Positions 10,975 through 39,206 of a DNA stretch of 64,000 nucleotides are shown in pieces. The notes under the pieces are model-generated. The model was not told the DNA's origin and did no database searches. It saw only the letters and a list, made by a program, of their open reading frames with translations. The translations under genes and the position numbers were made by a program. The stretch's first letter is position 1. The number at the start of each line of letters is the position of its first letter. The stretch lies in contig JAVLKG010000002.1 in assembly GCA_032128875.1 (NCBI GenBank), forward strand, positions 832,001 through 896,000, written 5' to 3'. The stretch is from Candidatus Melainabacteria bacterium 17Bon1m. GTDB lineage: Bacteria; Cyanobacteriota; Vampirovibrionia; Obscuribacterales; Obscuribacteraceae.

Positions 10975-11004
10975 AGAAGGTAAACCGTTATCTGTTTACC
11001 TTCT
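10975..11004. repeat. dispersed 30-bp palindrome, copy 1
   Basis: AGAAGGTAAAC-CGTTATCT-GTTTACCTTCT with perfect 11-bp arms. Confidence 0.9.
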
Positions 11005-16169: not shown

Positions 16170-16199
16170 AGAAGGTAAACCGTTAACGGTTTAACTTCC
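16170..16199. repeat. dispersed 30-bp palindrome, copy 2
   Basis: AGAAGGTAAACCGTTAACGGTTTAACTTCC, about 10 bp after the fusA stop. Confidence 0.9.
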
Positions 16200-16210
16200 A
16201 AGCAAGTATC

Positions 16211-16244
16211 AAGGCAGCCGGTAAAATCGGCTGCCTTTTGCTTT
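16211..16244 (+). terminator. intrinsic terminator after fusA
   Basis: AAGGCAGCCGG-TAAAA-TCGGCTGCCTT followed by TTGCTTT. Confidence 0.8.
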
Positions 16245-22466: not shown

Positions 22467-22622
22467 CTGGAACCTTTGCCAGAAGATATCAGCGGGAGGC
22501 CTTTCCCGGGTAATTGGACATATTCCCTGTTTTGAAGCCTATTAAGTAGCCAAGCAATTAATAAGCTCTTCTGATAGCCGAGCCTGTCAAGTGAAAAATC
22601 GCCATTGAACGCTTGGACAAGG

Positions 22623-22660
22623 CTGTAGAAGTTAAAGGGTTAACGATTTAACTTCTACAG
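22623..22660. repeat. dispersed palindrome, copy 3
   Basis: CTGT-AGAAGTTAAAGGGTTAACGATTTAACTTCT-ACAG. Confidence 0.85.
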
Positions 22661-22760
22661 CTCTGCGTCCTTGACAATTGAAAAGCGCCGCAAGGAAAGC
22701 CGGCAGACTTTTAGACGGCGTCCGATAACTGCTCGAAGGCTAGATTTAGGTAGTAAAAAA

Positions 22761-25776: not shown

Positions 25777-26406
25777 ATGCCTCACGATAATGCACCACTT
25801 GCCGAAGTGATCTCTTCGTCCATTACTGGTGTGGTGGCACAGTGTTTGATGTCTTCCGACAAGGACGGGATGCCCGATACGCCCAAGCCACGTTTTGGCA
25901 GTTTCTTGAAAATCCGTACTGTTAGTAATCTAGATGTTTTAACTGTTGTGCATAATGTCATAACAGGCTCTCCTGATGCTGTGCACCAACCCTGGGCACT
26001 AGGGCTTTCACGCGAACAGTTACGAGAAGAGCAACCGCATATTTTTTCTCTTTTGCGAACGGAAGTTCATGCAGTTGTTGTCGGTTACATCGAAGGCGGC
26101 CATGTATTTCAGCATTTGCCGCCTGTACCACCCGAGGTGCATGATTTTGTGTATTTAGCCAGCGATGAAGAAATTCGTCAGGTTACGGAAGGCTTTGATT
26201 TCCTGCGATTGATTGCGACAGTCACAACAGTTCCACAGGATGAGCTGGCTGCAGCGAGTATTCGCGAAGCACATAAGGCACATGGGAATGACTATTCATT
26301 TCTAGTTGAAGCGGGACAAGCGCTATCGCATGTTTTCAAAAACGATTTCGATCGACTCGTAACGATCTTACGCAAGATTCGCCCGGGAACACCTGCTCGC
26401 TCGTAG
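25777..26406 (+). CDS. HAS-barrel domain protein (HerA/NurA-associated, cyanobacterial type)
   Basis: Motifs LAEVISSS, PRFGSFLK, ALGLSREQLREEQPHIF and QHLPPVPPEVH. Confidence 0.8.
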   Translation: MPHDNAPLAEVISSSITGVVAQCLMSSDKDGMPDTPKPRFGSFLKIRTVSNLDVLTVVHNVITGSPDAVHQPWALGLSREQLREEQPHIFSLLRTEVHAVVVGYIEGGHVFQHLPPVPPEVHDFVYLASDEEIRQVTEGFDFLRLIATVTTVPQDELAAASIREAHKAHGNDYSFLVEAGQALSHVFKNDFDRLVTILRKIRPGTPARS

Positions 26407-26422
26407 CGCGAAATGGAGCATT

Positions 26423-26466
26423 GAGGTTTAGAAGGTTAACCGTTATCGGTTAACCTTCCAAACCTC
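26423..26466. repeat. dispersed palindrome, copy 4 (longest, 44 bp)
   Basis: GAGGTTT-A-GAAGGTTAACCG-TTAT-CGGTTAACCTTC-C-AAACCTC. Confidence 0.92.
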
Positions 26467-26541
26467 TTCTTTTGGGGCCGAAAATTTTGTTGTCAGTATT
26501 AGATTTGTTTTGAACTTTTTGTCCGTAGGACTCGTATTCAA

Positions 26542-27588
26542 ATGTATGAGTTCGAGGGAACGGATATGAGTGTTAAGCGTCCAGCCGATATTGCATATGA
26601 ACTTGCACAAGCAGCGTTACCTGCTCTAGTGGCTGAGTTTGGACCGGAAGCGAAAGCAAAATCCATAGTGCTTGGAAAGCTTGCGCAGAGAGAAGTTATT
26701 GTTTGTGCTCATTGCAGAGCCGAAAACAAAATTCCGTCGGAAGAAATCCGGATGTTTTTGTGCTGCGAATGCCGAAAGCAGATTTGGGTTACTGCAGACA
26801 CGAATTTCCGCAGAGTGCGCTTGTTCTTTGTACGTCTCGGCATTATGCGATTGCAGGAAATGGGAATCTGTATCAACGCCAATCAGGCGTCCAAATTGTT
26901 CGGTGTTTCTTACAACACGGTCAGCGGATTTTACAAGAAATTGGGAATCTCTGTAATTTCTTTGATGCCAGATCGCTCCGTGGAAGTCCCGACCAGCTTT
27001 AGCATCTCCGTTGTCTGCAGGCGTACAAGACAAACACAGGCAGAGAAAGCACCTTTTGAAGAAGAGTTTGAAATGCAAAAAAACGCTGCTGAATCCCCGG
27101 ATTCGCCATTTCAAATGAGTATTGATACTTTGAATTCCACACTCTCTGAATTGGAATTACAGATTCTGGAAATGCTAAAAGACAAGACAGTTTCGTTAGA
27201 AGAGTTAAATGCAGAAATAAAGGACAGTAGTGCTTCTATATCGAGCGCGCTGACAATGCTCGAGTTGAGTGGACATATTAAGGCAAGCTTTGGCAATAAA
27301 TTTTCGCTCGCCAATTCTCTATCCTTGAAAAATCTGGATTGTGGCGAAAAGGAAAAGGCGATCGCCGAAAGCTTCAATCAGTTCATAAAGGACTACTTTC
27401 AGGGAATCGGAAGAAAAAATCTCCAAGTTTATTCTTCGTTCAATTGGTTCGCATTTGATCGAAATTTCTGGTCAATCAACCGCCTGAGAGACTTTTTCAT
27501 TACGTTTCCATATATTCCACATGAGGAGATTCTTGATTTTGTAACTCCACTAAGCTTCAAGATCATTCCGCGGTTTGATAGTTCGTAA
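26542..27588 (+). CDS. IS1595-transposase-derived protein (Zn ribbon, HTH, DprA-like winged helix; no DDE core evident)
   Basis: CAHC...CCECRKQIWVTADTNF, INANQASKLFGVSYNT, LSELELQILEML...SSALTMLELSGHI and FQGIGRKNLQVY. Confidence 0.7.
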   Translation: MYEFEGTDMSVKRPADIAYELAQAALPALVAEFGPEAKAKSIVLGKLAQREVIVCAHCRAENKIPSEEIRMFLCCECRKQIWVTADTNFRRVRLFFVRLGIMRLQEMGICINANQASKLFGVSYNTVSGFYKKLGISVISLMPDRSVEVPTSFSISVVCRRTRQTQAEKAPFEEEFEMQKNAAESPDSPFQMSIDTLNSTLSELELQILEMLKDKTVSLEELNAEIKDSSASISSALTMLELSGHIKASFGNKFSLANSLSLKNLDCGEKEKAIAESFNQFIKDYFQGIGRKNLQVYSSFNWFAFDRNFWSINRLRDFFITFPYIPHEEILDFVTPLSFKIIPRFDSS

Positions 27589-27620
27589 AACAATGATTGG
27601 AAGTGCAGCAGAGGTAGAGG

Positions 27621-28457
27621 TTAAGCCTTCACCGTGTCAGTTTCGCCGTACTTCAAATAGATCCAGATTGCGGCAGCGACAATTATGATGAGCAGTGTTG
27701 AAACTGCGCATCCAAACGCCCAATCTCTGACTGCAAGAAATTGGTTCTGAATCAAATTGCCTATAAACATCGTTTTGCCACCTCCGAGTAAGTCAGGAGT
27801 GACATAGTCTCCTAATGCCGGAACGAAAACCATGATGCTACCTGCGATTAGTCCTCTTGAACTTAGAGGCACAGTGACCTTGAAAAAGGTTTGAAAAGGA
27901 GTTGCACCTAAATCAGATGCAGCTTCTATCAGCCTAACATCGAGTTTTTCCAATGCTGCATACACAGGAAGGACCATGTACGGCAGATAGTTGTAAACCA
28001 TCCCTAAAAGGACTGCGTATGGCGAGTAGAGAAGAAAGGGAGGATTTATCCAGCCGAATGCCGACAAAATATCAGACAAAATTCCAGTTGGGCGAAGAAT
28101 CGTTATCCATGCATAAATGCGCAGTAAGAATGAAGTCCAAAGCGGCAACACGAATAAAGTCATAAGCAGACTTTTGTATTTTGTCGGCACCGAAAATGCC
28201 ATCCATGTTGCCGTTAAAGTGCCTAAGACCAAACAAATGACAGTCGTCATTGCTGCCAGTGTCATCGACCTCATGAGCGTTTGTAGGTAAGGTCCGGAAA
28301 AAAAGCGCATGTAATTGTCAAAATTAAGGCCGGATAGTGCAACTCTTCCTAGATCATCACGGTGCCCGACACTAAAGACGAGAAGAATGACCAGCGGGAC
28401 GACCATAAAAACAGTCAGCCACAATCCGGCAGGCAAAAGTATCAGGCGCGCTTTCAA
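27621..28457 (-). CDS. polyamine ABC transporter permease (PotB-like)
   Basis: Motifs LPLWTSFLLRIYAW, YLPYMVLP and LIEAASDLGA (EAA motif). Confidence 0.92.
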   Translation of the reverse strand: MKARLILLPAGLWLTVFMVVPLVILLVFSVGHRDDLGRVALSGLNFDNYMRFFSGPYLQTLMRSMTLAAMTTVICLVLGTLTATWMAFSVPTKYKSLLMTLFVLPLWTSFLLRIYAWITILRPTGILSDILSAFGWINPPFLLYSPYAVLLGMVYNYLPYMVLPVYAALEKLDVRLIEAASDLGATPFQTFFKVTVPLSSRGLIAGSIMVFVPALGDYVTPDLLGGGKTMFIGNLIQNQFLAVRDWAFGCAVSTLLIIIVAAAIWIYLKYGETDTVKA

Positions 28458-28792: not shown

Positions 28793-29740
28793 TTGAGAGT
28801 GCTTTTCTTAGGAACGCCCGAGTTTGCAGTTCCCACCTTAAACGAACTAATCGCCTTTCCAAAGACTGAGGTGGTTGGAGTTGTCTGCCAGCCGGACAGA
28901 CCGGCTGGGCGCGGCAATAAAGTTCATGTTCCGCCCGTCAAAGAAGTGGCCCTGAAGCATGGCATACCCGTTTTGCAGCCTATCAAATTGGCTAAAGAAC
29001 CTGAAGTCGTTCAGGCTATGCGCGATCTCGATCCCGACTTAATTGTCATGGTTGCATTCGGGCAAATTCTCAAGAAAGAAGTTCTCGAACTTCCCAAAAA
29101 AGGGGTTATGAATTTGCATGGCTCCTTGCTTCCCAAGCTGCGAGGCGCCGCGCCGATCAATTGGTCGATTATGAATGGTGATACTGTGGCCGGTATCACA
29201 ACCATGTTTACCGATGTCGGCGTTGATACGGGTCCAATGCTTTTGAAAGCCGAGGTGCCGCTTACCGACGAAATGACCTCTATTGATTTAGCTCATGAGT
29301 TGTCTACAGTTGGAGCCAAGCTAGTCATTACAACTATCGAGAAAATGTTGGATGGCAGCCTGGTTGCAGAACCACAAGACGACAGCCAACATACTTATGC
29401 ACCCATTCTTACCAAAGATATGGGCGTCATCGACTGGAAGTGGGACGCCAGAAAAATTCACAATAGAGTGCGCGGTCTTCAGCCGTGGCCAGGCACCGTT
29501 GCTACATTCAAAGGAACCCAACTGAAAGTCTGGAAAACTAGAGTCAAAGCTGGCTTACATGGTACAGCGCAACCAGGAACGCTTTTGATAGAAAATGGGC
29601 AACTATTGGTATGCTGCTCGGAAAACGGCTCAGAACGCCTCGAATTGATAGAAGTGCAACCGGCAAATAAAAACAAAATGTCTGCACAGTCATGGGCAAA
29701 CGGCATTCACATCAAGAGTGGCGAGGAGCGTTTCGACTAA
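28793..29740 (+). CDS. fmt: methionyl-tRNA formyltransferase
   Basis: Motifs FLGTPEFAVP, QPDRPAGRG, NLHGSLLPKLRGAAPI and VDTGP. Confidence 0.97.
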   Translation: MRVLFLGTPEFAVPTLNELIAFPKTEVVGVVCQPDRPAGRGNKVHVPPVKEVALKHGIPVLQPIKLAKEPEVVQAMRDLDPDLIVMVAFGQILKKEVLELPKKGVMNLHGSLLPKLRGAAPINWSIMNGDTVAGITTMFTDVGVDTGPMLLKAEVPLTDEMTSIDLAHELSTVGAKLVITTIEKMLDGSLVAEPQDDSQHTYAPILTKDMGVIDWKWDARKIHNRVRGLQPWPGTVATFKGTQLKVWKTRVKAGLHGTAQPGTLLIENGQLLVCCSENGSERLELIEVQPANKNKMSAQSWANGIHIKSGEERFD

Positions 29741-31404
29741 TGGCAGAAGATTCTGAAGATTCATCAAAGTCGCAAGATTCATCGAAGTCGCAGGATTCGT
29801 CAAAGTCGTCCCGTTCTCGCTCACGCATTGGTCCCAAAAAAGCAGCTCGAATTGCCGCAGGCGAAGACTTGAAAAAGGGTGGCAAGAAAGACGGACAAAT
29901 AAGCGGACAAAAAAACACCGAAAAGGGGTTTTCCAAGGTTGGAAGTGCACAAAAGCGCGGTCAAACAGGCAAGTCAGAAGCAAACGCTCAAGGCATGGCT
30001 TCGCGAAAACTTGCATTAGAAACTTTGATAAAAATCGAAAAAGACGGTGCCTATGCTAACTTGGCTCTGTCTGCAGGTTTTGAAAGGCAGCAATTGAGCG
30101 AGAAAGACCGCGCCTTTGTTACTGCTCTGGTTCAAGGTGTTCTTCGAAATCAGAATCTCCTCGATCAAAAAATTCAAACTGTCAGCAAAGAACCACTGGA
30201 GAAAATGCCACCACTGTTGCGCAATTTATTGCGAATGGCTATTTTTCAGCTGGAGAATCTTAGCGAAACCCCTCAGCATGCTGTTCTCGATACCTCGAAC
30301 AAATTGGCTCGCGCACTCGGTCACGAAGGACTTGTAAGGTATACGAACGGTGTCTTGCGTGGCTATCTGCGCAAGACCGTGGACAATACAGAAGAGACAA
30401 CGTCAAATGACGCTCAATCACTGAGCATTAAGTATTCTCTGCCTGTGTGGCTGATCCAAAAATGGATCGACTTCTATGGACCGCAGGAAGCTCAAGCTTT
30501 GCTCGATTGGTCCCAAAAGGAGCCCGGGCTAACTGTTCGAGTTTCTGACGTCAACGTTGAGCCTAAGACAATGCTCGACATCATGAATAAGAATGGTTTT
30601 GCCGCGAGGGAAGGGCACCTGGTTCCTTCTTGTCTGATTTTTGAGGGCAAAGAAGGTGGCAAATCTTTTAGTGGCTCACCGCAAAAGTTGCCGGGATACG
30701 ATGACGGATTATTTGTTGTCCAAGACGAAGCTGCAGCTTTTGTTTCTTTGGTTGTCGCTCCTCAAAAAGGCGAGACGATCGTTGATCTGTGCGCGGCTCC
30801 CGGCGGAAAAACAGTGCATTTGGCTGAGATGTTGGAAAACACAGGGCGCGTTGTTGCAGTCGACAAACACGAGTCAAGGTTGAAACTCGTCAAAGAGGCA
30901 CGGCTAAAACAAGGATTGAAAAATCTCGAAACTGTCGCAGCTGATGGAAGAGAATTCACTCTCAATAAGCTTGTCGACAGAGTTTTGCTCGATGCACCCT
31001 GTAGCGGCACCGGAGTTATTAATCGCCGCACTGATATCCGCACCAATCGAAAACAATCTGATATCGAGGAGCTCAATACATTACAGAAAGAATTGCTTGC
31101 TAATGCAGCGAAGATGGTAAAACCGGGTGGAGTGCTCGTTTACTCAACTTGCTCTCTAGAGCCAGAGGAGAATATTCAGGTTGTCGAATGGTTTCTCAAT
31201 GAACACTCGAACTTTCAAGGTTCTTCATTGCTGCCGTTCTTAAGTGCGGAAATTCAGGAAAAGTGGTTTGCAAAGGAAAACGAAGAATCACTCCCGCCTG
31301 TTTCAACAAAAGCGGCTGCTGAAAAGGGCTATATACAGCTGATTCCAACGCGTCATGGAGTAGCTGGATTTTTCGTATGTCGGCTGGAAAGAAAGCCCGA
31401 TTGA
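29740..31404 (+). CDS. rsmB: 16S rRNA (cytosine967-C5)-methyltransferase RsmB/Sun
   Basis: NusB-like N-domain, VQDEAA, DLCAAPGGKT, DAPCSGTG and YSTCS; TAATG overlap with fmt; low-complexity N-terminal extension (DSSKSQ repeats). Confidence 0.95.
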   Translation: MAEDSEDSSKSQDSSKSQDSSKSSRSRSRIGPKKAARIAAGEDLKKGGKKDGQISGQKNTEKGFSKVGSAQKRGQTGKSEANAQGMASRKLALETLIKIEKDGAYANLALSAGFERQQLSEKDRAFVTALVQGVLRNQNLLDQKIQTVSKEPLEKMPPLLRNLLRMAIFQLENLSETPQHAVLDTSNKLARALGHEGLVRYTNGVLRGYLRKTVDNTEETTSNDAQSLSIKYSLPVWLIQKWIDFYGPQEAQALLDWSQKEPGLTVRVSDVNVEPKTMLDIMNKNGFAAREGHLVPSCLIFEGKEGGKSFSGSPQKLPGYDDGLFVVQDEAAAFVSLVVAPQKGETIVDLCAAPGGKTVHLAEMLENTGRVVAVDKHESRLKLVKEARLKQGLKNLETVAADGREFTLNKLVDRVLLDAPCSGTGVINRRTDIRTNRKQSDIEELNTLQKELLANAAKMVKPGGVLVYSTCSLEPEENIQVVEWFLNEHSNFQGSSLLPFLSAEIQEKWFAKENEESLPPVSTKAAAEKGYIQLIPTRHGVAGFFVCRLERKPD

Positions 31405-39176: not shown

Positions 39177-39206
39177 AGAAGGTTAACGGTTATCGATTAA
39201 CCTTCT
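39177..39206. repeat. dispersed 30-bp palindrome, copy 5
   Basis: AGAAGGTTAACGGTTATCGATTAACCTTCT, 6 bp after the ictB stop. Confidence 0.9.

Follow-up and report, generated by a model that had tools for sequence, protein, structure and literature searches.

To our knowledge, bacterial domesticated transposases with their own repeat families are represented by essentially one known case, the HUH-type RAYT/REP system. In the portions of the literature cited here, RAYT (TnpA-REP) is a vertically inherited, low-copy transposase derivative, domesticated from the IS200/IS605-type HUH-Y1 transposases, that keeps its catalytic domain (PMC8266576; PMC3116915; PMC5581495; 10.1101/2021.07.10.451892). 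According to the same portions, each paralog is paired with its own extragenic palindromes (REP/REPIN), protein and palindrome co-vary, the copies are long-lived, the RAYT gene is flanked on both sides, and REPs number in the hundreds genome-wide. The protein family described here is similarly low-copy and vertically inherited, and its paralogs are likewise paired with their own long-lived palindromes, one of which adjoins the gene and which co-vary with the protein. In contrast to RAYT, it is derived from the DDE transposases of the IS1595 type, its catalytic domain is gone and a DprA winged helix is inserted. Its palindromes also differ, as there are 5-18 copies per set, mostly near the gene, and the gene is flanked on one side, with a downstream palindrome as well at 1 of 18 loci.

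IS1595 transposases combine the domains Zn_Tnp_IS1595 (PF12760) and DDE_Tnp_IS1595 (PF12762), and the zinc-ribbon/HTH module in transposases binds the ends of the element. The protein found here has N-terminal helices, a zinc ribbon, an HTH and C-terminal helices that are homologous to and collinear with those of IS1595 transposases, but it lacks the DDE sheet, the acidic triad, terminal inverted repeats (TIRs) and recent copies, and it falls below the threshold of the Pfam models. It shares with DprA the winged helix (PF17782), set here within a transposase scaffold, and lacks the Rossmann-like core. Transposase-derived proteins whose binding sites are remnants of the ends of their own transposon include SETMAR/Hsmar1 and CENP-B in eukaryotes and the TnpB-derived TldR repressors in bacteria. 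They belong to other superfamilies, but the present family would be like them in that the DNA-binding module of a transposase outlives catalysis and the sites descend from element ends. The titles and abstract openings that we found on domesticated IS1595 concerned eukaryotic, ciliate or unrelated topics, and no bacterial IS1595-derived case was found among them.

The initial annotation had proposed that the gene encodes a transposase-derived protein paired with dispersed palindromes in the manner of RAYT/REP. This idea is supported by the results below. An intact RNase H fold, TIR-flanked homologs and a lack of association between homologs and palindrome, the three outcomes that it had named as counting against it, were each looked for and not seen. 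The family would then be a second, independent case, in which a DDE-derived protein is no longer catalytic and carries a domain whose counterpart in DprA recruits a recombination helicase. The family is large, occurs in the non-photosynthetic lineage that is sister to Cyanobacteria, and has so far been unannotated except for a DprA_WH match; the present analysis provides a name and a hypothesis for it.

Domain architecture and the missing catalytic core

The gene lies in a window of 64,000 nucleotides, which is the whole stretch of DNA that was analyzed. An intact open reading frame of 348 aa extends from 26542 to 27588 on the + strand, as the initial annotation had stated, and all of the peptides quoted there were found in it. 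The start codon is likely at 26566 (M9), giving a protein of 340 aa, since the orthologs are 340-341 aa long and begin at the M9 equivalent. The gene had also been described as AT-rich, and its G+C content of 42.8% is indeed lower than that of the upstream gene (48.1%), the downstream gene (45.2%) and the window (48.0%). At 20 of 21 family loci a TTGAAC box, a putative promoter, lies about 55-75 nt 5' of the start; a scan with the sigma-70 consensus did not call it at 26510..26540. The features of the gene are as follows:

26510..26540, + strand: promoter-like box TTGAAC-TTTTT...CGTAT(T), conserved in the family, between the palindrome and the start codon
26566..27588, + strand: coding sequence of the DDE-less chimera of IS1595 transposase and DprA winged helix, 340 aa from M9 (the longest open reading frame starts at 26542)
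26623..26961, + strand: N-terminal module homologous to that of IS1595 transposases, comprising a pair of helices, a CxxC...CxxC zinc ribbon and an HTH of three helices (from hhalign; boundaries approximate)
26962..27123, + strand: linker starting with VEVP, a short strand where strand beta-1 of the RNase H fold would be (from alignment and models)
27124..27309, + strand: winged helix of the DprA C-terminal type, occupying the expected position of the DDE core (from Pfam, hhalign and fold search)
27325..27585, + strand: C-terminal helical tail homologous to that of IS1595 transposases, with the family motif G-I-S-R-K-Y-L-Q-x-Y (GIGRKNLQVY in this gene)

By sequence comparison, the protein is a chimera of an IS1595-transposase N-terminus, a DprA C-terminal winged helix and an IS1595 tail. 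The zinc ribbon and HTH noted previously at the N-terminus were confirmed with hhalign, which matched this region to IS1595 transposases with a close-ortholog alignment (97.7%, E 1.5e-12) and with a broad family alignment (99.8%, E 1.9e-29), although the IS1595 models of Pfam and NCBIfam gave zero matches to the protein (Pfam HMM up to E 1). The four cysteines of the zinc ribbon are 99-100% conserved in 74 family sequences, and the whole-length comparison with IS1595 transposases covered 283 columns (99.7%, E 7.3e-27). The IS1595-like tail, another claim of the initial annotation, was recovered with the broad 74-sequence profile only (94.5%, E 7.6e-8, compared to E 0.17-0.27 for negative controls), as the close-ortholog profile alone gave an insignificant match (E 0.11-0.19). 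No match to an HUH-Y1 (IS200/IS605-like) transposase was found in Pfam or NCBIfam.

The middle of the protein had been read as a DprA-like winged helix, and both domain and fold searches agree that a winged helix of the ArsR/MarR type is present. Pfam matched DprA_WH (PF17782) to aa 199-248 (E 5e-7; 30.1 bits, with a cut-off of 22.9), and hhalign aligned the domain to the last 68 residues of the DprA encoded by the same genome (residues 349-416 of 418; 98.7%, E 2.9e-16), including the LTMLEL(A/S)G motif. Within it, an L-E-L-x-G motif is conserved at 96/88/74/78% in 74 family sequences. The match is restricted to the C-terminal winged helix in both Pfam and hhalign, and the Rossmann-like DNA_processg_A core of DprA is absent. 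Residues 174-251 of the structural model aligned to wHTH domains with a Z of about 10 (VIA-align). Searches of the PDB by sequence and fold returned winged-helix and zinc-ribbon look-alikes and no transposase; the winged helix dominated the fold lists, so these searches barely probed the N-terminus and tail. PADLOC and PHROGs gave nothing beyond weak winged-helix-type matches. When the family profile was run against the gene's own genome, it retrieved the sole bona fide IS1595 transposase through the N-terminus (E 4.2e-19) and DprA through the winged helix (E 1.6e-18).

The catalytic core is missing. The AF2 model of the protein (pLDDT 92.9, pTM 0.80) has no five-stranded RNase H sheet, whereas the model of the IS1595 transposase from the same genome has one (strands 133-141, 159-167, 172-180, 204-207 and 222-225); the order of secondary structures at the N- and C-termini agrees between the two models. 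DDE_Tnp_IS1595 (PF12762) had no match in Pfam. Among 74 family members the sole invariant acidic residue is one Glu, and there is no conserved acidic triad. The equivalents of IS1595 residues D137, D208 and E269 are non-acidic or unaligned in hhalign, and the third catalytic position is Ala or Ser. Thus, the non-catalytic, DDE-less middle proposed earlier agrees with both the model and the alignment. The initial annotation placed the loss of the first catalytic Asp at VEVPT, where VEVDE would be expected. This residue is indeed missing, but hhalign puts its position at "ISVV", right after "VEVPTSFS" and therefore beyond VEVPT. In the AF2 model, "VEVP" forms a short strand where strand beta-1 of IS1595 would be. 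The linker that begins with this strand has insignificant similarity to the IS1595 core (hhalign, broad family alignment, E 0.22), and it holds the best-conserved motif of the family, R-S-R-x-T-P-A-x-x-H-P-x-x-E, which in this gene is RRTRQTQAEKAPFEE. The R and E of this motif are conserved at 100%, the T at 99% and the P at 96% in 74 family sequences.

Palindrome sets paired with paralogs

Five palindrome copies were located in the window, none of which is assigned a strand:

10975..11004: copy between the divergent smpB and GNAT acetyltransferase genes, at an orthologous position in genomes G057, G144 and G169
16171..16198: copy 10 nt past the stop of fusA (EF-G), with a G+C-rich terminator hairpin immediately after it; each of the four genomes compared within the genus has this copy
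22622..22661: copy whose arms are imperfect, located between the CHASE2 sensor gene and the oligopeptide-permease operon, directly 5' of a conserved TTGACA
26423..26466: gene-proximal cognate palindrome of 44 bp, with 20-nt arms that are 95% complementary and 4 nt between the arms
39177..39206: copy with two arm mismatches, 6 nt past the stop of a Wzy_C/O-antigen-ligase-like gene; the G057 palindrome at this position is perfect

The gene-proximal palindrome ends 75 bp before the ATG at 26542, as had been reported, and 99 bp before the start at 26566. It is among the longest copies of its palindrome family in the genome, it is at the same position in G057, G144 and G169, and it contains the shared 28-mer GAAGGTTAACCGTTATCGGTTAACCTTC at 26431-26458. 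The half-site has 7 matches in the window at no more than one mismatch, compared to about 0.65 expected by our own arithmetic; at 3 mismatches the number is about that expected by chance.

The initial annotation cautioned that the link between protein and palindrome rested on one adjacency. This caveat no longer applies, because the association is general among homologs. At 23 of 35 family loci, the 400 nt upstream of the gene contain a palindrome whose arms are 10 nt or longer, compared to 3/35 downstream and 1/34 far upstream. The other 12 loci have no long upstream palindrome at this arm threshold. In our own reading of the same table, a palindrome centered on C(C/G)G-WWWW lies 36-133 nt from the estimated start in 24/35 loci. 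Such palindromes are absent in all four genomes without the family.

The palindrome of each paralog is about 28 bp long and combines a core common to the family, CCG-WTWW-CGG, with arms private to that paralog. One of the longest copies lies about 100 bp 5' of the gene and 9-60 bp upstream of the TTGAAC box, and there are 4-17 further intergenic copies, most of them no farther than 60-130 kb from the gene (six sets, two genomes; P between 1e-3 and 1e-16). In the gene's own genome, G000, with the gene's own upstream copy excluded, 8 of the 17 copies of family A and 9 of the 10 copies of family B are within 60 kb of the cognate gene, and all four copies of family C are within 100 kb (P from 1.5e-3 to 6e-16). 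The other nine family-A copies are distant, either on other contigs or 150 kb away. Clustering was also seen in the closed genome G080, where 10/10 sites of one set fall in a 122-kb span, 14/14 sites of another in 265 kb and 14/15 of a further set in 0.58 Mb, with all pattern controls at zero. This genome also has a broken paralog, of whose set the upstream copy alone is left, and a dispersed palindrome subtype that has no adjoining family gene.

Inheritance of the gene and evolution of the sites

The family is found at full length only in Obscuribacteraceae-like genomes of Melainabacteria (47/47 sampled) and comprises 670 clusters at 50% identity (E up to 1e-10), with between 1 and about 12 diverged paralogs per genome. 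Three paralogs in G000 are 28-36% identical, and G100 has at least 10 paralogs with a top pairwise identity of 81%; no identical copies were seen. The position of the gene is collinear across four genomes of the genus, including G057, G144 and G169, at 71-94% nucleotide identity. Its dN/dS against the G057 ortholog is 0.18. The gene is inherited vertically and is under purifying selection. An inverted-repeat search of the flanks found no convincing inverted repeat spanning the gene, which agrees with the absence of TIRs noted earlier. Homologs are not flanked by TIRs either, since an arm-like sequence 3' of the gene occurs in only the 1/18 family loci mentioned above. A candidate downstream half-site or TIR at 27609-27635, with 10/14 matches, was rejected as it was not above background (background fraction 0.13).

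Each of the five window sites has a counterpart at the orthologous position in both G057 and G144, and copies are stable at such positions over about 8-25% nucleotide divergence. Their arms nevertheless change in concert. In G144 the arms are altered identically at every window site and likewise at one distal site, so that 6/6 orthologous positions compared have GAAGTTAAAGCGATATCGC... in G144 compared to GAAGG(T/A)(T/A)AACCG... in G000, and both versions stay palindromic. The center tetranucleotide flips between orthologous copies. The distal copy C6:52796 exists in G000, shows decay in G057 and is missing from G144, G169 and G196; no target-site duplication was seen in this single comparison of a filled and an empty site. 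Each perfect 28-bp set belongs to one paralog, and the paralogs share no more than 25-36% identity, suggesting that the copies were made or homogenized after the DDE-less architecture arose.

Conservation of the palindromes was similar to that of other intergenic DNA, at 0.90 compared to 0.93 in G057, where two of five sites could be scored, and 0.78 compared to 0.74 in G144. Selection on the palindrome sequence itself is therefore unsupported. Palindromy reaching into the copy-specific flanks was not above the shuffled-partner control.

Possible roles of the protein at its palindromes

We consider it probable that the protein descends from an IS1595-type DDE transposase, has been domesticated, is catalytically dead and recognizes its palindromes. 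Under this explanation, the DDE/RNase H core would have been exchanged for the DprA C-terminal winged helix, while the N-terminal module and tail were retained. A dimer may bind both arms of the cognate palindrome through the transposase-derived N-terminal module. The palindrome resembles a pair of transposon ends in head-to-head orientation. Through the upstream palindrome the protein probably regulates its own expression at the promoter, and it may act preferentially in cis on neighboring copies. The winged helix could provide extra DNA contacts or recruit the ComM helicase, as it does in DprA during natural transformation. The DprA winged helix binds ComM and, in Helicobacter pylori, is reported not to bind dsDNA, according to the part of the source cited here (PMC12012524). 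Because of the latter report, the winged helix here may not read DNA at all. If the explanation holds, the family offers a tractable system for studying the re-use of transposon-end binding modules, the joint change in specificity of a protein and its 10-20 sites, and the reason why sites remain no more than about 100 kb from the gene, be it cis action, local recombination or chromosome structuring.

A possible alternative, which we hold with less than even confidence, is that the system is still propagating like REP/RAYT. The protein would then act with host factors to copy, re-write or homogenize the palindromes, for example by recruiting ComM through the winged helix, with branch migration and repair at hairpins or cruciforms to follow, and the copies would be maintained repeats and not regulatory sites. 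The concerted arm changes between G144 and G000, the center flips and the patchy presence of C6:52796 all favor this alternative, and it is implausible that point mutation produced a perfect 28-bp palindrome 10-17 times over. The copies also have a REP-like bias in position, as 12/34 lie between convergent genes and 12 of the 16 copies in a tandem context lie closer to the 3' end of the gene before them. The genes beside the copies are housekeeping genes unrelated to one another and with no common function (smpB, fusA, GNAT, the CHASE2 sensor, opp, the Wzy-like gene, nuoK and an OmpR-type regulator). Finally, the genome encodes both ComM (G000:C3:521624-523129) and a DprA bearing the winged helix. 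The family L-E-L-x-G motif matches the pattern that holds the ComM-contact residues E353 and L354 of Vibrio cholerae DprA, a correspondence that is our own unverified mapping onto the part of the source cited (PMC12012524). Against propagation are the lack of conserved catalytic residues, the missing target-site duplication, the stability of copies at orthologous positions, and copy numbers that are 10-100 times below those of REPs.

One specific version of this process is decidedly doubtful. The N-terminus would sit on the private palindromes while the winged helix brings ComM, and branch migration and repair at hairpins or cruciforms would re-write the neighbors from the gene-side master copy. 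If true, a domesticated transposase could in this way maintain and homogenize a repeat family, and spread it locally, with no need of a nuclease. The paralogs, which number up to a dozen in a genome, would each mark their own neighborhood of about 100-250 kb, and this would constitute a new kind of locus-specific recombination or chromosome-domain system.

Less probable than propagation in general, and in our view unlikely, is that the protein is an ordinary autoregulated local transcription factor with a wHTH/HTH fold of transposase descent, for which the palindromes are the operators of a surrounding regulon. Local regulators commonly have targets clustered near their own gene, so the clustering would fit. 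The ArsR/MarR-type winged helix and the position of the palindrome 9-60 bp 5' of the conserved TTGAAC box in most family members also fit, as do two window copies located between divergent genes and beside a TTGACA. However, only 5/34 copies are between divergent genes, and many are 6-60 nt past stop codons or between convergent genes. An outward TTGACA occurs within 90 nt of only 4/34 copies, compared to a background of 3.5%, and a general association of the palindromes with promoters is thus unsupported. The flanking genes have no common function, and a concerted change of all sites would be hard to reach operator by operator.

It is very improbable that the adjacency is incidental and that the palindromes are terminators or RNA hairpins of neighboring genes, unrelated to the protein. 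Some features do resemble terminators: the gene-proximal copy begins 17 nt past the stop of the upstream gene and is followed by TTCTTTT, many copies are at gene 3' ends, and in family B a short G+C stem is surrounded by A- and T-tracts. A terminator scan of 26300-26700 found none, though, and most copies lack a T-run, so this reading is unsupported. A distinct canonical terminator comes after the fusA copy. Moreover, terminators do not have a common 28-nt sequence, the upstream neighbors of three paralogs are unrelated and yet a palindrome is kept at each, arm type follows the paralog in six sets, and the palindromes are missing from all four family-free genomes. A still-active, unusual IS, an IS1595 variant whose transposase uses the winged helix, is next to untenable: homology to IS1595 transposases, multiple copies in some genomes (such as G100) and the AT-rich gene would suit it, but the RNase H fold, the acidic triad, TIRs and identical copies are all absent (top identity 81% in G100 and 36% in G000), the position is conserved genus-wide, and dN/dS is 0.18.

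The region was also seen in three public runs labeled as RNA, which contain it as contigs of tens of kilobases with flat depth (run maxima of 138-148 kb). Since the region sits in long contigs at flat depth, these runs look like DNA. Contigs of these three runs end at palindromes.

Origins of the chimeric protein

The window corresponds to G000:C2:832001-896000, and the gene and the sequence ahead of it contain the following features.
26423 to 26466: palindrome of 44 bp (arms of 20 nt with 1 mismatched pair, 4 nt between the arms)
26510 to 26540: box TTGAAC-TTTTT-(~12 nt)-CGTAT
26542 to 27588, + strand: unbroken ORF of 348 aa encoding the chimera (IS1595 transposase N-terminus, DprA winged helix, IS1595 tail)

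The frame is intact, as stated in the initial annotation. Eighteen database relatives, mostly 340-341 aa long, have their first residue at the position of Met9, which makes 26566 the likely start. The palindrome ends 75 bp before 26542, the distance given originally, and 99 bp before 26566. The gene was also correctly described as more AT-rich than its neighbors, with 42.8% G+C compared to 48.1% for the upstream gene, 45.2% for the downstream gene and 48.0% for the window.

Pfam reported a sole model for the chimera, DprA_WH (PF17782; aa 199-248, E 5e-7, 30.1 bits vs a cut-off of 22.9). The IS1595 models in Pfam gave no match at E up to 1, and no NCBIfam model scored above its cut-offs. The IS1595 kinship, missed by single HMMs, was seen by profile-profile comparison. 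Three alignments were used: A1, 19 close relatives of the chimera; A2, 36 IS1595 transposases, for which the seed was the only bona fide IS1595 transposase (on contig C13) in G000, the window's own genome; and A3, 74 diverse members of the family. A3 was drawn from 1.84 billion searched representatives, among which 1220 proteins matched at E<=1e-3, 670 at E<=1e-10 and 341 at E<=1e-30.

Profile-profile comparisons with IS1595 transposases (comparison; probability, where noted; E value)
A1 N-terminal 116 columns vs A2; 97.7%; 1.5e-12
A3 whole length, 283 columns, vs A2; 99.7%; 7.3e-27
A3 N-terminus vs IS1595 N-terminus; 99.8%; 1.9e-29
A3 tail vs IS1595 C-terminal half (ends aligned); 94.5%; 7.6e-8
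A1 tail alone vs A2; 0.11-0.19
A3 linker vs IS1595 core; 0.22
Mismatched halves vs A2 (negative controls); 0.17-0.27

These comparisons support the proposed IS1595 Zn ribbon and HTH at the N-terminus and, with the 74-member alignment, the IS1595-like tail. The DprA-like winged helix proposed for the middle was recovered both by PF17782 and by A3 against G000's own DprA (418 aa), which matched at 98.7% probability (E 2.9e-16) across the last 68 DprA residues. Pairwise identity to the DprA winged helix is 28% for the chimera and 36% for the paralog on C3, which has LTMLELAG in common with G000 DprA. Judged by sequence, the middle domain of the chimera is the C-terminal winged helix of DprA.

The AF2 model of the chimera, built from A3 (mean pLDDT 92.9, pTM 0.80), runs from two helices through a four-strand zinc ribbon, three helices, the four-residue strand VEVP and short helices to the winged helix (model residues 188-241) and long C-terminal helices. 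A model of G000's IS1595 transposase (pLDDT 82.6) has the identical N-terminal and C-terminal order, and its RNase H strands (133-141, 159-167, 172-180, 204-207 and 222-225) are absent from the family when the two models are compared. Fold searches with model residues 174-251 returned only winged-helix look-alikes (VIA-align Z ~10, Foldseek E 0.028 or weaker). Invariant or near-invariant in the 74 sequences are four Cys, one Arg and one Glu of R-S-R-x-T-P-A-x-x-H-P-x-x-E, and the tail motif G-I-S-R-K-Y-L-Q. No acidic triad is conserved across them, and hhalign of A3 against A2 places the three IS1595 catalytic positions at non-acidic or unaligned positions. An intact RNase H fold with a catalytic triad had been named beforehand as evidence against a non-catalytic protein; neither was found in the AF2 model or the 74 sequences. 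The reading of VEVPT in place of the catalytic VEVDE held in part, since the Asp is missing and VEVP forms a strand at the beta-1 place, but hhalign puts the Asp ~8 residues after VEVPT. The IS1595 transposase gene on C13 (L005, 1114-2031; 305 aa, PF12762 E 8.6e-17) is the only bona fide one in G000, and no convincing terminal inverted repeats were seen there, the best pair being 71-74% complementary.

Inheritance and distribution

No inverted repeats spanning the chimera gene were found, and arm-like sequence was present downstream of the family gene at 1 of 18 loci, in agreement with the lack of terminal inverted repeats noted at first. The window is collinear with three other genomes of the genus, G057 (88-94% nucleotide identity), G144 (76-84%) and G169 (71-79%), with the chimera gene in place. 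The dN/dS suggested as a check is 0.18 for G000 vs G057 (dN 0.051, dS 0.282); more distant pairs were saturated. G000 has three full-length paralogs (C2, the window gene; C4; C3) at 28-36% identity. In another genome, G100, the paralogs number at least 10, are 394-414 aa long and share no more than 81% identity in any pair. The chimera gene is not a live mobile element.

The family profile matches 146 of 201 sampled genomes of the class, G000 counted. Within the bacterial family to which the window belongs, all 47 sampled genomes matched (1-20 matches each). Matches in other bacterial families were single and weak (E ~1e-4 to 1e-11) and are presumably DprA winged helices. Relatives of the chimera are labelled Candidatus Obscuribacteraceae, Obscuribacterales or Melainabacteria.

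Palindrome sets of the individual paralogs

G000 was scanned genome-wide for palindromes on CG-W-T-W-W-CG-type octamer centers with <=3 arm mismatches. The scan gave 37 sites from 1344 centers, 31 of which fell into three families; three imperfect members were added by hand, giving 34 sites. In every palindrome family, one copy lies ~100 bp upstream of a paralog and the others cluster near that paralog.

Palindrome families in G000 (counts near the gene leave out its own upstream copy)
Family A; GAAG(G)T(T/A)AA(C/G)CG-TTAT-...; 18 sites; within 60 kb, 8/17 observed, 0.27 expected, P 9e-11
Family B; GAAAAAAG(A/G)(C/T)CG-TTAA-...; 11 sites; within 60 kb, 9/10 observed, 0.16 expected, P 6e-16
Family C; (A)GAACCGAATCG-TTAT-...; 5 sites; within 100 kb, 4/4 observed, P 5e-7; within 60 kb, 2/4 observed, P 1.5e-3

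The same clustering was found in G080, whose closed genome (5.0 Mb) belongs to a different genus. There, 10/10 sites of the paralog at 2.379 Mb lie at 2.339-2.462 Mb, 14/14 of the paralog at 3.558 Mb at 3.424-3.689 Mb, and 14/15 (<=2 mismatches) of the paralog at 4.416 Mb at 4.06-4.64 Mb; backward-pattern controls gave 0 sites in all. At ~3.966 Mb (G080:C1:3965214-3966210; L053, L054) a family gene is broken into two ORFs of 231 and 145 aa, and its palindrome type occurs only once in G080, as its own upstream copy. G193 has smaller clusters near two paralogs. In four class genomes without the family, all matches to the core pattern were chance ones and not palindromic.

The suggested enrichment beside homologs was observed: a palindrome with arms >=10 nt lies within 400 nt upstream of 23/35 family loci, compared to 3/35 downstream and 1/34 far upstream, in a set from many genomes that includes some mutual orthologs. 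By our own reading, a C(C/G)G-WWWW-type center is present in 24/35 loci, 36-133 nt from the estimated start. Upstream, the three G000 paralogs each have a different, unrelated neighbor (a HAS-barrel protein, an OmpR-type regulator and nuoK) and, thus, the palindrome travels with the gene, not the neighbor.

By crude ORF calls, 33 of the 34 G000 copies are intergenic and one is ambiguous. Twelve (8 loci) lie between convergent genes, five between divergent genes and 16 between tandem genes, 12 of the latter closer to the 3' end of the upstream gene. In the window, the copies adjoin smpB, a GNAT acetyltransferase, fusA, a CHASE2 sensor, an opp-type permease and a Wzy-like gene. An outward TTGACA occurs <=90 nt from only 4/34 copies (background 3.5%), and T-runs are missing at most. 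The fusA palindrome lies between the stop codon and a separate, real terminator, a canonical G+C-rich hairpin and T-run at 16211-16237 (GGCAGCCGG...CCGGCTGCC-TTTTGC) that is kept in all four genus genomes. Placement of the copies is REP-like rather than operator-like.

The TTGAAC box lies ~55-75 nt upstream of the start in 20/21 family loci, with the palindrome 9-60 nt further upstream; besides the window, the loci are L002, L003 and L006-L053. The box is strongly conserved even among paralogs ~25% identical, and a sigma-70 consensus scan did not call it. A promoter or leader common to the family genes is its probable role.

G057 and G144 have all five window copies at orthologous positions. 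G169 has at least three, its contig stopping short of the fifth. Palindrome bases are no more conserved than other intergenic DNA in G057 (0.90 vs 0.93, two sites scorable) or G144 (0.78 vs 0.74), and despite this ordinary conservation the copies are still near-perfect palindromes. G144 has GAAGTTAAAGCGATATCGCTTTAACTTC at all window copies and at the distal C1:524703 site, where G000 has GAAGG(T/A)(T/A)AACCG..., so that identical paired changes occur on both arms at 6/6 positions. The center tetranucleotide flips between TTAT and ATAA among orthologs. Another distal copy of G000, C6:52796, is in decay in G057 and missing from G144, G169 and G196, with no target-site duplication visible in this comparison. 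Distal G000 copies bear arm variants typical of G169 and G144. The concerted near-perfect palindromy requires either copying or homogenization of the sites, or an unusual degree of parallel co-evolution with the protein.

Several further repeat arrangements were seen. Outside the window, palindrome copies also form tandem arrays with a 37-38-bp period (three copies at G000:C2:824415-824517, two at G000:C4:515426-515490), and loci L032 and L035 of other genomes have similar palindrome pairs at 31-34 bp; these are reminiscent of iteron or centromere-like arrays. A dispersed subtype in G080, AACCTAAACCGATATCGGTTTAGGTT (C1, ~0.45-3.2 Mb), has at least 12 sites over 2.7 Mb and no adjoining family gene. 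Each arm is 1-2 nt away from that of the 4.416-Mb paralog's palindromes, and the subtype could be an orphan or ancestral set. G000 also has unrelated palindromes centered on CGCATGCG (179 scan matches including nested stems, e.g. GGGAGCCGCATGCGGCTCCC; e.g. L005 2284-2309) and ~25 hairpins of the type CTCCGAAAA(A)/TTTTCGGAG. Contigs of public runs holding this DNA stop or restart exactly at the palindromes at window 22624-22659 and 26433-26448, showing that the repeats fragment short-read assemblies of these genomes.

Proposed working and relation to known systems

With the chimera's origins, loss of catalysis and vertical inheritance established, along with the paralog-specific pairing, clustering and concerted persistence of the palindromes, a working can be proposed. 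The N-terminal module would bind the palindrome arms, as transposase N-termini bind element ends. Since the palindrome resembles two ends head to head, a dimer would be expected on it. The copy ahead of the conserved promoter-like box suggests autoregulation, and the clustering of copies near the gene suggests action in cis.

PMC12012524 (2025) reports that ComM is recruited for branch migration through its binding to the C-terminal winged helix of DprA, that the H. pylori DprA winged helix does not bind dsDNA, and that L350, E353 and L354 are interface residues in V. cholerae. The most conserved winged-helix motif in the 74 family sequences is L-E-L-x-G (96/88/74/78%), to which, in our own mapping by pattern alone, these residues appear to correspond. 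G000 encodes a ComM/YifB helicase at C3:521624-523129 (L103; 621 bits, above cut-off). If it recruited ComM, a palindrome-tethered chimera could explain the homogenization of copies. DprA with its C-terminal winged helix is encoded at G000:C2:1070397-1071653 (L048), and DprA and ComM are core natural-transformation recombination parts, here in an uncultured lineage.

The closest known system is RAYT/REP, which the family resembles in logic. It differs in its superfamily, the loss of catalysis, the DprA-domain fusion, the copy number and the local distribution of copies. Searches of the main text of open literature gave no account of a domesticated protein derived from IS1595 in bacteria or of these palindromes, and no relevant case among bacterial transposase-derived transcription factors. 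Papers on IS1595 and domestication were judged to treat eukaryotic, ciliate or unrelated subjects.

Elsewhere in the window, an RsmB-like ORF (29692..31404) starts with a low-complexity stretch, DSSKSQ x3 (29692-29940), which overlaps the end of fmt.
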